This document shows, one piece after another, positions 49,369 through 60,500 of a DNA stretch of 64,000 bases; positions within the stretch are counted from its first letter, which is position 1; each line of letters begins with the position of its first letter. This DNA is from Psilocybe cubensis (Eukaryota). Where the stretch lies: contig CM039002.1 of NCBI GenBank assembly GCA_017499595.2, positions 868,001 through 932,000 on the forward strand. The letters are read 5' to 3'. A program made the position numbers and the translations under genes. The notes beneath the pieces were generated by a model. That model was given only the letters and a program-made list of their open reading frames with translations, did no database searches and was not told the origin of the DNA.

Positions 49369-50804
<1,436 letters not shown>

Positions 50805-51411
50805 TGTAGTCTTTCCCTTTTCTGAAGAATGAAAATCTTGTTTGTCTCAATGTTTATTGTGCCAAAATCTCAGTCCTGAGACGAGAACAGCATCAGCACC
50901 ACTTTTACAAACGTACTGCGGTGTGGGTATATTTCTGGTCTTCACCGTCTTCTTTTTGACTCATCCTTTTTCAGGACATATAGAATATTCTACGCGACCT
51001 CATGACCTCATGACCACAGTAATCGGCAAGAAAACATACGGTTGTTTTCTATCTTCGACAATTCCGGCCCGTGCCACGTCGTTTAAGGTGTCAATTCACT
51101 CTACGGCCACTCAAATGCAATACTCATCACTAAGTCTACGCTGCCACGAAGCGTCTTGCGGAGTCGATACGGCGCGATCACTTTTATGCACCAGCAACGC
51201 CCGCCAAGTATCTCACGATTGTGCGAACCAATGAACAGAAATCGGTATAGTGGGCAAGCATCCCTGGCATTTATTTTCAGACTGCTCGCTGAAATCTTTT
51301 ATTAGTATGCTTCATGTGGGGGTGTAGGCGTTTAGGAGAGTGATATAAGGCGACGTTAGGACCCAGAAAGCCACGCCAGAGAGGATACTGCCATTCTGAA
51401 GCACTTTTTCA

Positions 51412-52915
51412 ATGGCGAAGCTTGCTGTGTTTGTGGGCTCCTTACTCATTTCGATTCCATTCTCTGCTGCCCAATTAGATATCCTCGCCCAACTCGCCGG
51501 GAAAAAATACTTTGGAACTGCTACAGACAACCCAGAACTTACTAATGCCTCTTATGTAGCCCAGCTAGGCAACACATTGGATTTCCATCAACTGACCCCG
51601 GTACGTGATACGTTTTATTTCATTCTTTCATGAAACCTGTCTCATGCGATTCGATAGGCCAATAGTATGAAATGGGTCAGCAATATTTCCTCTCTAAGCC
51701 GGCTTGCTTTGACAATTGTCTGGTAGGATGCTACTGAACCTTCTCGAGGAATATTCACATTTAATGGTGGAGATGCTATTGTCGCCCAAGCAAAATCACG
51801 AGGGCAGCTTATGCGAGGTAAATTCAGTGGAAATTATCGTTCATAAGCTGCGTCTCTGAAATCTCTACAACTCTAGGTCATAATTGCGTTTGGCATAGTC
51901 AGCTTCCTGACTGGGTGACGGCTGGAAATTTCGACAATGCCACCCTATTATCAATCGTAGAGAATCACTGCGGCACGCTAGTTGGACACTACAAAGGCCA
52001 AATGTAGGTTTTTGGTCATTTTCCGTCAAATGATACTAACTATTAATTAATAGATGTATGTTTTTGTTATTCTTCAACATATTTGTCCCATCTTTATTAA
52101 CCAGAAAAAATAGATGGTTGGGATGTCATCAATGGTGAGACATTCAGCCATGTCAAGACTTCTTTTTTATCTCATACATCGATTAAGAGGCGATAAATGA
52201 TGATGGGACTTTCCGACAATCCGTCTTTTTCAACACAACTGGTCTTTCCTACATCAAGGCGGCTTTGAGAACTGCTCGAAAAGCAGACCCCAAAGCAAAG
52301 CTATACGTTCGTTGTTTTTCATCGATCGCACATGACTCTGGTTTTACTGAATTTTCATTCAGATCAATGATTTCAACATCGAAGGCACTGGTGCCAAATC
52401 GACTACAATGATCAACCTTGTCAAGGAGTTGAAGTCTGAGGGTGTTCCGATTGATGGGATCGGTGTCCAATCTCATCTTATCGTTGGCGAAGTTCCTACA
52501 ACTATGCAAGAAAATCTTCAAGCCTTCGCCGACCTCGGTGTAGAGGTTGCTATTACCGAACTTGATATCAGAATGACTCTACCAGAGACCCCTGAACTCC
52601 TTGAACAACAGACGAAGGATTACGAATTTGTGATCTCAGCTTGCAAGGCCGTCAAAGGCTGCGTCGGTGTGACTCTATGGGACTGGACTGACAAGGCATG
52701 TTGATTGCAATTTTTCTCATCGGGAATGTTTCTCTGAAGATCATATTTTTCAGTTTTCATGGGTTCCTGGAGCCTTCGCTGGTCAGGGTGGTGCTTGCCC
52801 ATGGGATGAGGTTAGCATTCGGAAGTCTCCCAAGTTGCAAGTAACTAATAGGCATATTCAGAACTTCAAAAAGAAACCAGCTTACCTGGGTATCGTCAAA
52901 GGATGGCTGTCGTGA
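51412..52915 (+). CDS. GH10 endo-1,4-beta-xylanase, secreted, no CBM, copy 2
   Basis: [57 protein letters not shown]. Confidence 0.95.
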
Positions 52916-53804
52916 AAACAGTTAAAAGGACGAAGTAATATTTATATATGAAACCAGCAGTCTGTTTTAGTCTATGCGAATACACGCCATTCATTGGTCT
53001 ATTCTAGGACCATTACTGAATCAAGTAGCTAAGTTTCTTGAACTGTCAAAATTCTGTTTCTCGGTGGTTTTTTCCAGAATTTCATCGACCATTGGCGTGG
53101 AGATGAGGTCAGGTTGTTGTTATAGGTTGCTGCGGCATTCTCACAGTGATTTTCGCCTAGAAATGTGATTTTCATAATAGTCATATTACTGACAATATGA
53201 CCTATATGTGGAGCCTCACTCTCTTGCGTCACAACGTCTTCCAGTGTACCAAATCAATTTTGGAAGACCACAACATTCTTATAGTCTTTACCAACATAAT
53301 TACCACCACTCTTTATGTCGAGGACCGCATCGCCTTTTTGATCAAACGAACCAAGTAGATGGGTCCTACCAGTGATTTCACCCGTATTCTCTCTGCTCAC
53401 TACACATCTTTTGACGGCAGGAGATTGACATTCGAACCTCATGACTGCTCTTTCTATTTTCTTAAACGATAGCTCCGTTCCGTCTGCAAATTTGGGTTCC
53501 GGGCTCCATGCAAGGACCCATGTATCCGGACTTGGACACCATCTAGAGAAAACGGGATACATTTTGAATGTCATGACCTGTGTTTTGGAGCTCGTCTTCC
53601 ATCGGTACTGGGCCAGGACCATACATTGGACTCGCACGAATGTGCGAATCAGTTGTGAATTTAGTCTCCAATGATCAACTGTTAGAGCACCTGGAGCACC
53701 TCCTGGTACATCCTCATACGACGTGCGGGGGCGGCCCTTTTATCTGTGGAGGGTATATTAACGAGGGGTGAAAATGGCTCAGCAACATAATCCTCCTTTC
53801 GAAT

Positions 53805-55273
<1,469 letters not shown>

Positions 55274-55723: not shown

Positions 55724-57534
55724 ATGGACATGATCCACGAATCAGATAACGCGCAAGAGCTCAACGTGAAGTTTTACCCGGAACTTTTCTTGCAGCGCCG
55801 GATATGGATACTAGATATCTTACGGAGGGAGAACATCACACGAGTATGTCATTCAACAAATTTTTTTGAATCAAAACCGTTTCACAGAAGAGGACTTTAT
55901 TTTTGCAATGACATAGGTGCTAGATGTTGGTTGCGGTGAAGGTCAGATACTAGGCGTGCTGTGCCAGCCAGCGCCATGGCTTACACCACCACCATCATCA
56001 ATTTTGCCCCCGATCAAACCCTCGACGTCACCCGACGACATTGTGCCTCCATCCCCTATTTACAACGACGATGAGGTACCCACCCTGCATATTCGTGAAG
56101 TCCATGGACTCGATATCTCAGCTGAAGACCTTACCTTCGCTGTAGCGGCAATTACACCTCCTCAAGAAGAGGATGAACCCGCAGAGGGTCTGGGATTCCG
56201 ACCATTCTATCGTGGTGTGCAACGGTGGGAAGAGCTCCTCGCTAAGGTTTGGAAAGGTGGGCTGGAAGTCATAAATGAAGAGTTTATAGACATTGAATGT
56301 ATCGTCAGCACCGAGGTGTAGGTCCGAACACAAACTGTATCATTTCATACATAACTGACGACCCTTTCCCAACAGAATCGAACATCTCCCAGAGCCCATA
56401 TTCTCAGCGTTCACACCCATGCTATTGGGAGTATACCACCCAAAATTTCTGCTCGTTACTACGCCTTCATACACATTTAACGCTCGCTTTACCCCACCGG
56501 ATGCACCAAGGTCTGCTAGGAAAGGATATCCTGATCCGACAGGAAGAACGGATCGCATTTTCCGACACGATGACCACAAATTCGAATGGACAAGAGATGA
56601 ATTCGAAACTTGGTGTAATGAAACAGCCAAAGAATGGGGATATGATGTCGAGTGGTCAAGCATCGGTAGACCATTGGAATATGACCCCTGGGGAAGAGAT
56701 GAAGAACTCCAAGGAGCATCTTTCGTTGCTACGTTTCGCAGACGGAACGATGTCGACAATGAAGAGAGAGAGAAAAAAGGCCGAGCCAAGTTAGGTGATT
56801 TGGCGTTAAATCAGGAACCACACGAAGCCTTGGCCATATACAACCATGTTACAAGCTCAGTTGCAAAGAAACCCAAACCTCTATCAGATATAGCAGCTCT
56901 CGTCAAGGGGAAAATGGAAGAATTTCGAGAGGCCTTTATGAGGGTGGAAGAAATGTGGTTTGAACCAAGTATTTCTAGGGCATGCGGTGGTTGGATCGAG
57001 CTCTTAGTTAGGGCAGTTGAAGAGAGTTCTGATCTGAACATGAAGAGGGATGTTGACGGCGTCGTGATGAAACAAAGTAGTATGTGGAGTATTGAACTCA
57101 TTGGAGCGGTTGCTTTCCCCACAAATCCGTGGACAGATACAGCCAACACTAGTGTTGACTATATCCCATTAGACTGGACCCCTGGAGAAGGTCCCCATGA
57201 CAGTTGGGATGATAGCGATGCCGAAGGTTCGACGGGTATAGAAGGCGACGTTTCTGCGTTTACGTCGGATAACGATGCAGACGAGGAATCTGACAATGAA
57301 ACAACTACTGGGATAGAACGATCTGCCTGGAAAGAATTGTCAGATATTCAAGCGAAGACCCGGTCACAAAACAACTGGGCAAGTTCAGGAAGTGATTGGG
57401 CAGCTAGCGATACTAGTGGGTGGGGAGAACACGATAGAGATGACACAGACATAGGTTGGGGAAATCCTGCTGCTAGTTCAAGTTCGACTGCTGGATGGGA
57501 TGGAGATGAAAGTGGTGATACTACTTCATATTAA
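55724..57534 (+). CDS. HEN1: Small RNA 2'-O-methyltransferase (HEN1/HENMT1) with long acidic Trp-rich C-terminal extension (3 exons)
   Basis: FYPELFLQRR (FxPP-like motif); VLDVGCGEG (SAM-binding motif I); STEV|IEHL; VTTPSYTFN; FRHDDHKFEWTRDEF. Introns at about 55844-55916 and 56318-56376. Confidence 0.93.
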
Positions 57535-60500
57535 CCTTATTCATACTGGAAAGATCGTTTTGGGTAACCAGTGATATATTAGAGTGGAACTGTCCGCGAG
57601 GTAAACTGGTACAATACTGCATATATCCACGTAAGTTAAATCCATGAATGTAGGACATATTGACCCTTACCTGGTATAAATACTCTTCCCGATTCTGACA
57701 TCTAAAAGATAACTCGATTCTACTTCTTCCCTGACCGAACTGGGACTGCATAGATTTATTGTCAATTTCAAACAGAGTGGAATGAATAGCCAAATTCACC
57801 AATAAGGGGATGTAGCTGAGCCATGTATGTCACTGCCCACATAAGATAGCAACATGTTAGCGTCAGTAGCAGCGCCGTTCGTATCGTCCTATATGCACGC
57901 AATAATTAAAATGACACACAAGCACCATTCACGAAGATGAGTACTTGCACTTGTTGGGGTCCTTTTGGCACAAAAAGCGCGGCTGCTGTCATCAGCGCAG
58001 CTGTAACGACGAACATGAAGAGAACAGGAAGAACTGTCGCCATGATGGTTGACTCGCAAGACGGTGAGCAAGGTCATTCCAACGTTGGCGCAGTTCCGCT
58101 CAATTTCAGGGATGTGGGAATATATTACGTCATCAATACTGTTCAATCTGTTGACGTGCCAGCGTCAGTGCTTGCAAAGTTATCCAAAGCTGGAAACTTA
58201 GTCGAAAACGTACTTTATACCAGATGCATACTCCATGTCGTTGAGCTGCATCCTCGAGATATCCATGCCCTACAAAACTTCACCGGATCCAGTAGTATGG
58301 GCGAAACAATCAAATTCAAATTCACCACTGTAGGTGAATCTCTGTGAATTTGCGCAGGCGGTTCAAGGATCAAAATTGACAGCGATTTACCGTTGTCATA
58401 CGTTGGATTTCACGAGGCGTCATTCTTGATTCCACAAAGGGTATTCATTTGGTTTCACTGCCCTTTTATTTTGTGCTGACCGATGAATTCAGTAGTAGAT
58501 ACAACACTCCGGGAGAAATCTCGGAGGACCACACGGATCCACAATCAAAGTCAACCAATACAAATAGGAGTCTTTTTATGAGACCTCAAAGCTTCAACTC
58601 GCGGTACAACTTACTGGCAAAGAACCGGCAGCTTGTGCGACCGCCGACGGACAATACTCGGGCATTTTTTAACTGGACGGTACAGTCGGCCTGTTTGATG
58701 TGTGTCGTTCAACAAATCCCGCACAACACCACTTTCATGCTCAAATTTTCTCCTTTTACCAGTCATTTTTACGGAAACATTTTCCATATCCATCTTGATA
58801 TACGTCGAGGCAATACATGAATCTTGGCCTCGTATATTTATTCGCCTCTACTCTACAGCTGAAGATGTATCGGTGCCGGGAACTTGAAACGATGGTTGCA
58901 TCCTCCTTCACTTTCTGAAGCGTGCATATGCATGTTCCAACATCAATTTGTCAGGGCCTTGTCAGAACTTTATTGCATCGTAAAAAGCAGTGTCTTAATC
59001 GAAAGGGACTATCCTGTGCCCTAGGTTCAGTAGTCGCACGCTCAGGCAGATTTGGGTCGCACTCTATCGGTTGTCATACATACCGTAAAGCGGGCTCAAT
59101 CGCCGTCTACGAGTCACGGTGAACGGAGACTAATTGTACTTACAAGTAGTCTTCCTAACTCTTCCTACCGCTCCGGAATCAAACGCATTAGGATCTGCAA
59201 GCAATTCAGGCATCACAGGACTATTTACCTGCACCATTATTACAGCGACCCTGCCCCTCCTGCCCACATTTAAACACATAGCATGGATGCCGCGTGGCCA
59301 ACTGCCCATGACTCTCGCGTGGAAAGAAGACCCTTACCAGTTTCCTTTTATCGAGTTTATTGGATGCGCGTCGTGTCATGAAGCTTAGAAGCCGTAGAGC
59401 TCGCGGTTTGGATAGGCAGTCCAAGTACCGTGGTGACAAATTCTGACCATTATTCCTCCATGCTTTTTACAATCATTCCCCGACACTACTTTTTTTCCAA
59501 ACTCATCTAGGCGAGACCTCGAGCCCAGTTCCAGTGACTTTTAATGCCCCTAAATGAAAGGCTGCGAACTAAATGGATCTGTACAGGTCCATCTGCATTG
59601 CATCTCCTTTCAGGTCCCAGTTACATGGTCCGTGATTGTAATATTATGTCAAGTGTTCAAGATTTCGTCCACGATAAGCGAACACAAAATGCTCAGCGTG
59701 GCGCGGCGGCGCTGTTGTCTTTTTTGCCTAGAGCCCGCCGGCATCCATCCTTTCTTTCGGGCTTATGGGACTTTTCTGTGGCTACACTGACCGCTCCGAA
59801 TCTATGTCCAGAAGGAAGCGAAACTCCCACTGCCTAGTGAAGCTGATGAAGCATCTACAGTGGCGACTCAAAAATTTTCAGGTCGTCCGACGTAAAATGG
59901 TATGGGTGCCATACTTCGATCTTCCTCGTTATTTCAAAGGCTCTTACTCCTTGTCCTGACTAGATCCTGATTCCTCCTAGATCTCAAAATGTTATGATGA
60001 CTTTAATTTCTATTAATTGATCTTTGAAAAAAAATACAGGCCCGTAATTTGCTCATTTTGCTTTTTTTTTAATATTTGCAATCCGATATGCAAAAAGCAG
60101 GTTGTACCAGGATGTACCTTCCCGCTGGAACGTTTCTCAAAACCGAATTTCATGTCCGATTAAACAACCTTTCCTGCTCTCAGCAGCAGCAACTCCTCTT
60201 CTCTTTCGGCTGTTCTCCTGTCGCCTGAGGCCTCGCCATTCTCTAGAATTTCTATGGACATATGAGGCAACTACATCCCCGGACTCCGGATTGCGGAGGT
60301 GCGCGGGGCAGCGCGGGGCGACTTGGCACTGGGAGTTTCCTGAAAACAAAAGGGTATGCGGGATTCACAAGGTCTCTGTGGACCGACTATGCGCATCATC
60401 GGATCGTTCGGAGTTTGGCGCGGGATGGCTCAGATGTAGAATTCTACCGCGGGTGTAATGCAATTGGTATGTACATATAATAATGTATGTAGTACTGGTT

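Follow-up and report, generated by a model that had tools for sequence, protein, structure and literature searches.

We describe a HEN1 gene in Psilocybe cubensis, located in a 64,000-nucleotide stretch of the forward strand (assembly GCA_017499595.2, contig CM039002.1, positions 868,001 to 932,000), which is called the window here and from whose first letter all coordinates are counted. The encoded protein is predicted to consist of a small-RNA 2'-O-methyltransferase, a winged-helix-like domain, and a disordered acidic tail rich in Gly-Trp and Trp-Gly (GW/WG) pairs, and this GW/WG content is kept in HEN1 homologues across Agaricomycetes and Dacrymycetes. In the explanation we favor, which we regard as probable though far from settled, the protein is an animal-style methyltransferase of single strands with its own GW hook, which would tether HEN1 to loaded Argonaute so that the guide is methylated there.

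A preliminary description of the window had drawn attention to the tail, and its nine Trp residues, its D/E/S/G/T-rich composition, the coordinates of two GWG motifs (57418-57426 and 57454-57462) and one GW motif (57493-57498), and the quoted end sequence all proved exact. The nine Trp residues occur among 141 residues (D 15.6%, S 14.9%, T 11.3%, G 9.9%, E 7.1%, W 6.4%), and the AlphaFold2 model gives pLDDT values below 50 over residues 446 to 559. Two GWG motifs were reached by 0.24% of 100,000 shuffles of this tail (p = 0.002), and Trp pairs at least 10 residues apart are present (W523-W535-W548). With the WG/GW matrix of PMC2910046, segment 504-558 scored 40.3 half-bits, and the runner-up among the 103 open reading frames of the window scored 10.9; these are best-segment scores in our own use of the matrix, to which the ics score and thresholds of that paper were not applied. 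The composition of the distal tail correlates with the WG/GW-domain frequencies of the same paper at r = 0.84-0.87. The proposed likeness to WG/GW Argonaute-binding regions was thus upheld by disorder, by a composition rich in G, S, and D and poor in F, Y, C, H, and M, and by matrix score; an Atlas structure search of the tail gave no usable match.

Conservation of the Trp and GW content in relatives had been named beforehand as a check, and the content was kept in close, distant, and one-per-lineage sets of homologues. The close set held the best 120 of 427 homologues, 118 of them with a usable tail. The distant set held 145 sequences (this protein and 144 new ids from the best 150 of 890 representatives at 50% identity), 122 of them usable, and Ascomycete, Mucoromycota, and chytrid HEN1 tails fall outside this sample. 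Rows with a tail shorter than 50 residues or an unaligned domain, many of them fragments, were left out of the tail counts (2/120 and 23/145), and a FastTree tree of 126 of the 145 rows served only to place unnamed rows. In the close tails, Trp accounted for 6.1% of the residues, 431 of 878 Trp were Gly-flanked compared with 211 ± 12 after shuffling, and GWG occurred 88 times compared with 14 ± 4. The distant tails gave Trp 6.4%, Phe 1.4%, and Tyr 1.4%, with 370 of 800 Trp flanked by Gly (159 ± 10 after shuffling) and 103 GWG (9 ± 3); at least four Trp were present in 114/122 of these tails and at least two Gly-flanked Trp in 97/122. The enrichment amounts to 2- to 3-fold for GW, 2- to 3-fold for WG, and 6- to 11-fold for GWG, and the Trp frequency of 6.1-6.4% compares with 6.3% in the WG/GW reference set. 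A Trp pair 10 to 16 residues apart with at least one Gly-flanked member was found in 111/118 close and 98/122 distant tails, as a raw count without a shuffle baseline. To limit relatedness, a lineage sample of 13 named taxa, one sequence per lineage, was drawn across Agaricomycetes and Dacrymycetes; Gly-flanked Trp made up 35 of 85 compared with 16.6 expected (0/5000 shuffles), and GWG occurred 9 times compared with 0.9. Coprinopsis cinerea (P0078) carries the same tail.

Control regions and other motifs behaved differently from the GW pairs in the tails. Trp makes up 0.1-0.2% of HEN1's own disordered loops, the N-termini of Agaricomycete Argonautes, which are 22% Gly, contain 3 Trp in 8055 residues, and a matrix score of at least 15 was reached by 1/184 Argonautes compared with 91/120 close and 74/144 distant HEN1 homologues. 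Competing Trp motifs lay at, below, or near chance (AIM, the Atg8-binding WxxL, 0.94-1.01; [DE]W[DE] 0.6-0.7; PWxxW 0-1.3; DPW 0.2-1.5), clathrin box and CK2 sites were not enriched in the tails, and closely paired Trp were under-represented (W.{1,6}W ratio 0.77-0.89). Six smut, Pucciniomycotina, and Phaffia homologues, whose tail boundaries align poorly, showed no enrichment as a group (3 vs 2.5, p = 0.48); the sampled smut and Pucciniomycotina HEN1s, unlike the P. cubensis protein, have no GW run, and the Phaffia HEN1 ends in a short GWG...GWE. Separately, we observed that in the smut-clade HEN1s P0253, P0257, P0259, and P0266 the last three residues are S-W-D or S-W-E, which replace the GW run. 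The distant tails cannot be aligned to one another; therefore, composition and dipeptides are kept while the sequence turns over, and retention of composition despite sequence turnover has been reported for WG/GW domains (PMC2910046). Judged from these sequences, the GW/WG content extends across Agaricomycetes and Dacrymycetes, much wider than the preliminary description knew.

Within Agaricales, three motifs of the tail, which the preliminary description had overlooked, are conserved letter by letter (Table 1), and the pattern GW[DE][GAV][DE] occurs within the last 30 residues of 95/118 close but only 15/122 distant homologues. Two of these motifs (57229-57255 and 57496-57513) have [DE]-G-D-x-S in common, which was counted 199 times in the 118 tails compared with 7 expected; it resembles a repeated binding site or a phosphodegron.

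The identification of the gene as HEN1 was confirmed by its top matches, its database name, and its intact motifs. Exon 3 matches at 100% a 559-residue Psilocybe cubensis database protein named "small RNA 2'-O-methyltransferase" (P0003), and the top sequence and fold matches of the protein are plant, bacterial, and human HEN1. A HEN1-type Rossmann methyltransferase domain is present, in which the S-adenosylmethionine (SAM) motif and the metal- and RNA-binding, catalytic residues of E-x-x-E-H and R-H-x-D-H are intact and 99-100% conserved in the covering rows (G45/G47/G49 in 54/54 and D106 in 58/58), with the exception of E173 (60/72), which adjoins an exon junction. Columns encoded by exon 1 are similarly conserved in the covering rows of alignment A1 (F17 52/54, P19 53/53, L21 52/52, R26 54/55). 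One HEN1 copy was found in the genome, and methylation of small-RNA 3' ends is its predicted activity. The AlphaFold2 model, made with a 106-sequence alignment, comprises the methyltransferase at about residues 15-330, a folded domain at 340-417, and the disordered tail. The plant-type N-terminal double-stranded RNA-binding domains (dsRBDs) and the La-like and FKBP-like domains were all absent, and no dsRBD family was found among the 106 members scanned. Since the methyltransferase begins near residue 15 and the ATG is closely preceded by an in-frame stop, N-terminal dsRBDs could not be accommodated, and the earlier statement that they are missing stands.

The presence of the tail in the mRNA, a point on which the preliminary description could have failed, is indicated by contigs of runs X1 and X2, in which both introns are spliced and a single unbroken piece, 56376-57616, spans the tail, so that no intron removes it. 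These two runs come from one study and are RNA by our guess, intron skipping being the support for it, and they give no strand or level; because their contigs also merge with a convergent gene, the reads over the tail could come from either strand. Runs X3 and X4 hold unspliced DNA, are near-identical to each other, and may be source DNA.

The preliminary description placed a folded region ahead of the tail. Such a region exists, but it is not the methyltransferase alone, as a separate domain at residues 340-417, modeled with pLDDT mostly above 90, had been overlooked. Its Atlas structure matches are a La-motif protein (TM 0.70), ESCRT-II (0.67), and ScpA (0.58), all below the tool's bar for naming a family. 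No Pfam family, La (PF05383) included, was found for these residues, no La chain appeared in a PDB profile search up to E = 10, and hhalign against one La exon of this genome, a weak test, gave a probability of 0.4%; in the whole-model fold searches the match lists were filled by methyltransferases, so the small domain was not probed by them. The model suggests a winged-helix-like domain, and we name it no more firmly than that. A single-sequence fold of residues 330-420 (pTM 0.37, all-helical) conflicted with the full model and was discarded. We also observed the domain, with its invariant W368, C377-G-G, and W411, in basidiomycete HEN1s both with and without a GW tail.

On the Argonaute side, about eight Piwi-domain loci (L014-L021, on C3, C4, and C13) are present in the genome, three of them near the canonical Agaricomycete clade and five divergent, the latter known as exon fragments only; L015-L017 on C3, two of them in tandem, share only 30-36% identity with the Agaricomycete Argonautes sampled and diverge near the pocket helices. 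Human AGO2 pocket positions were mapped by pairwise alignment onto 112 Agaricomycete Argonautes of one clade (alignment A2). Pocket 3, as read from sequence, is mostly kept: R688 is Lys or Arg in 78 of the 112, C691 is kept in 109, and P700 in 100; further positions kept are L694 (89), F653 as Tyr (100), and P590 (111), and locus L014 retains Arg at R688. A preprint (10.1101/2025.10.18.683247) names K660 (a key residue of pocket 1), L694, F653, and R688, and PMC9262622 names C691 and P700 as pocket residues. The Argonaute side is thus consistent with a hook, though it is no proof of one. A predicted complex of P0392 (L021; residues 48-905), the one full-length P. cubensis Argonaute retrieved, with tail residues 500-559 gave an ipSAE of 0.00 in both runs; it was made without alignments or folded controls, by a tool unproven on peptides and disordered chains, and counts neither way. 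As a side observation, Asp occupies the fourth catalytic position (H807 in human) of 109/112 aligned Argonautes, giving a DEDD tetrad.

We infer binding, partner, pocket, and substrate as follows. Tail Trp pairs 10 to 16 residues apart (W523/W535/W548) would insert into the Trp pockets that the PIWI domain carries on its outer side, most likely pocket 3 plus an altered pocket 1 or 2. Given the preference of GW partners for guide-loaded Argonaute, the hook would select the mature RNA-induced silencing complex (RISC); for TNRC6, sites consisting of two Trp at least 10 residues apart and a preference for loaded RISC are reported (PMC9262622). The approximately 85 acidic residues preceding the hook could serve as a leash with which the catalytic domain reaches the guide 3' end at PAZ, and the last guide nucleotide would be 2'-O-methylated and thereby protected from tailing and trimming. 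In what is the weakest step, the winged-helix-like domain may help to hold the RNA end or Argonaute. Animal Hen1 is reported to modify single strands only (PMC3330095), and its C-terminal region, in which no motif is predicted, appears to make the contact with PIWI and to anchor the protein at nuage (PMC6158503). The fungus Rhizophagus expresses HEN1 and has small RNAs that are loaded in Argonaute and 2'-O-methylated (PMC8647823). Fungi are described as having no PIWI-clade proteins (PMC12477606), and therefore the partner would be an Argonaute of the AGO clade.

A more tentative proposal, which we think could well be wrong, is that the hook decides which small RNAs are methylated in mushroom-forming fungi. 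The tail might sense whether an Argonaute is loaded as well as which type of pocket it has, and guides would then be methylated in only a subset of the roughly eight Argonautes; the winged-helix-like domain might lift the guide 3' end from PAZ, and HEN1 might compete with other GW proteins for the pockets. The hook would then have been gained near the base of Agaricomycotina, perhaps from the terminal S-W-[DE] of smut homologues.

Several observations weigh against a GW hook. Gly adjacency in this protein alone is not above chance, since 3 of the 9 Trp have a Gly neighbor and shuffling reaches that in 23% of 100,000 trials (p = 0.23); hence, the case that the motifs exceed chance leans mainly on Trp content and on the homologues. 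About half of the tail Trp have no Gly neighbor, some members have no Gly-flanked Trp at all (Fomitiporia, 0/5), and part of the Gly-Trp adjacency could be mutational, TGG being one base from GGG. Over the whole tail the correlation with the reference domains is r = 0.71-0.77, and the tail is more acidic and less Gly/Asn-rich than they are. The fungal Trp pockets appear only partly conserved, in Argonautes sampled from one clade: K660 of pocket 1 is Lys in 3/112, Y698 is mostly Ile, and P0392 has Asn at K660 and Gln at R688. Conservation of the pockets would in any case be weak proof, because many of the conserved positions also belong to the structural core. A 2025 survey calls fungal GW pockets "remarkably variable," though TRP3 is conserved (PMC12477606).

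Instead of entering Argonaute pockets, the tail might act as a sticker-and-spacer region that sends HEN1 to RNA-silencing granules of the P-body or nuage type, where Argonaute would be met indirectly; we consider this unlikely. In its favor, the C-terminal domain of zebrafish Hen1 directs nuage localization (PMC3330095, PMC6158503), and disordered aromatics drive condensation, such that Trp-dependent co-immunoprecipitation alone is no proof of pocket binding (preprint 10.1101/2025.10.18.683247). The even spacing of the tail Trp, seen in the W.{1,6}W ratio, and the degenerate pocket 1 fit the same idea. However, known sticker regions usually rely on Tyr or Phe, whereas in the HEN1 tails only Trp is enriched and Phe and Tyr stay near 1%; moreover, Gly is favored on both sides of Trp, GWG is enriched as given above, and the tail is strongly acidic with few Arg or Lys. 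The terminal AGWDGD is also position-conserved in Agaricales, which suggests a defined binding site.

Such a site need not be read by Argonaute, and we give a low probability to the Trp motifs binding another Trp-pocket protein, such as a decay factor of the CCR4-NOT/PAN3 type, a partner of Dicer or of the RNA-dependent RNA polymerase, or an Argonaute chaperone. In that case HEN1 would act while siRNAs are produced or loaded, its substrates might be duplexes, and the winged-helix-like domain would stand in for the plant RNA-binding domains. GW182 Trp motifs are reported to serve CNOT9/CNOT1 as well, the three letter-conserved Agaricales motifs, two of them with [DE]GDxS, are unlike loose typical hooks, and the extra domain resembles in fold the La motif, plant HEN1 having a La-like domain (PMC1397878). 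Against this, the Trp motifs of trafficking and autophagy show no enrichment, the letter-conserved motifs seldom occur beyond Agaricales while the GW content persists there, and neither a sequence-level link to La nor a dsRNA-binding domain was found. A tail that arose as neutral low-complexity sequence, as an artifact of read-through or annotation, or as a by-product of an overlapping antisense gene would agree with the nonsignificant Gly adjacency in this protein and with the contigs that merge with the convergent gene, but this reading is refuted by conservation, and we give it hardly any credence: over 110 distant homologues have Trp at about 6% compared with 0.04-0.2% in control disordered regions, tail columns are near-invariant, and the reading frame of the neighboring gene ends at 57720, outside the tail, which it cannot explain.

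Like the animal and ciliate Hen1 proteins (DmHen1/Pimet, HENMT1, zebrafish Hen1, HENN-1), the P. cubensis protein has an N-terminal methyltransferase, no dsRBDs, and a C-terminal extension; unlike the C-terminal region of animal Hen1, which is without predicted motifs, the fungal extension is a winged-helix-like domain plus a GW/WG-rich tail. In plant HEN1 (Arabidopsis, PDB 3htx), which acts on duplexes, an N-terminal part of about 700 residues holds two dsRBDs, a La-like domain, and an FKBP-like domain, all of them absent here; compared with it, the winged-helix-like domain comes after the methyltransferase, and no sequence link to La was detected for it. The tail shares with GW182/TNRC6, NRPE1, SPT5L, SDE3, and S. 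pombe Tas3 a disordered G/S/W/D-rich composition and spaced GW/WG pairs with fast turnover around them, but it has fewer repeats than NRPE1, is more acidic, has less Gly and Asn, and is joined to a small-RNA methyltransferase; Argonaute binding is proven for those proteins, whereas the HEN1 tail is likened to them from sequence. Cryptococcus Gwo1, a GW protein, is not a methyltransferase and was compared by description rather than by sequence. It is a basidiomycete P-body protein, a reported Ago1 binder, and needed for silencing (PMC10402008).

HEN1 is well known, as are GW hooks, and we found no precedent for a hook on a small-RNA methyltransferase in the literature searched. The P. cubensis protein belongs to the same family as the fungal HEN1 homologues of S. 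pombe (SPBC336.05c), U. maydis, C. neoformans, and P. chrysosporium, which a 2006 paper catalogued on the basis of the catalytic domain and described as short forms of unknown molecular function; the accessible text of that paper has no mention of "tryptophan" or of a Trp-rich tail (PMC1397878). A 2026 review of fungal small RNAs mentions HEN1, in its accessible part, for plants and flies only (PMC13136243). No description of a GW tail in HEN1 was found in a literature search made at listing level, with supplements and most subscription journals outside it. A conserved GW hook, if true, would give a direct handle, which a few W-to-A changes could mutate, on how single-strand HEN1s find Argonaute-bound RNA and why only the cargo of some Argonautes is methylated. 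Mushroom-forming fungi would then methylate small RNAs animal-style without PIWI proteins, and the HEN1 tail would be a lineage-wide probe for whether the variable Trp pockets of fungal Argonautes work. Should the hook also select among small RNAs, it would be the first case of a defined, portable motif for Argonaute docking in a HEN1.

Table 1. Features of the HEN1 gene and its convergent neighbor. Residue counts of the Agaricales motifs are over 106 rows.
Feature	Position	Strand	Remarks
HEN1 gene, 3 exons, 559 aa	55724-57534	+	Predicted gene model; stop codon ends at 57534
Exon 1, aa 1-40: start codon, F-x-P-x-L (aa 17-21), RR (aa 25-26)	55724-55843	+	
Intron 1, 73 nt, GT..AG	55844-55916	+	Skipped in contigs X1, X2; present in X3, X4
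Exon 2: SAM-binding DVGCGEG motif, Pro-rich insertion	55917-56317	+	
Intron 2, 58 nt, GT..AG	56318-56375	+	Skipped in contigs X1, X2
Exon 3, aa 174-559 and stop: second half of methyltransferase, winged-helix-like domain, tail	56376-57534	+	
Catalytic half of methyltransferase, IEH and RHDDHKFEW motifs	56377-56742	+	
Winged-helix-like folded domain, aa 340-417; invariant W368, C377-G-G, W411	56872-57105	+	Model and alignment
Disordered acidic tail, aa 421-559, nine Trp	57115-57531	+	Sequence and AlphaFold2
Tail Trp codons	57130, 57175, 57205, 57328, 57376, 57397, 57421, 57457, 57496	+	
D-Y-I-P-x-D-W-x-P-G-E-G	57157-57192	+	P438 101, W441 104, P443 100
S-T-G-x-E-G-D-V-S	57229-57255	+	S459 94, G464 99, D465 103, S467 103
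GW/WG-rich segment, putative Argonaute hook, aa 504-558	57364-57528	+	W508, W515, GWG 523, GWG 535, GW 548
Terminal S-S-T-A-G-W-D-G-D-E-S-x-D-T-T-S	57481-57528	+	G547 94, W548 104, G550 96, D551 98
V-ATPase subunit e gene, 69 aa, convergent with HEN1	57720-58043	-	PF05493, E = 2.6e-13, exon 2

In the convergent gene for V-ATPase subunit e, the first intron (57889-57948) is GC-AG, and another intron (57617-57670) lies in the 3' untranslated region. The spliced contigs of HEN1 and of this gene merge, which suggests overlapping 3' ends and possibly sense-antisense RNA beside a gene of RNA interference. Directly upstream of HEN1, three GH10 xylanase-like genes lie in tandem on the same strand (about 49600-55270), with ITELDI at 50436, 52552, and 54902, and the third of them matches PF00331 with E = 1.7e-37.
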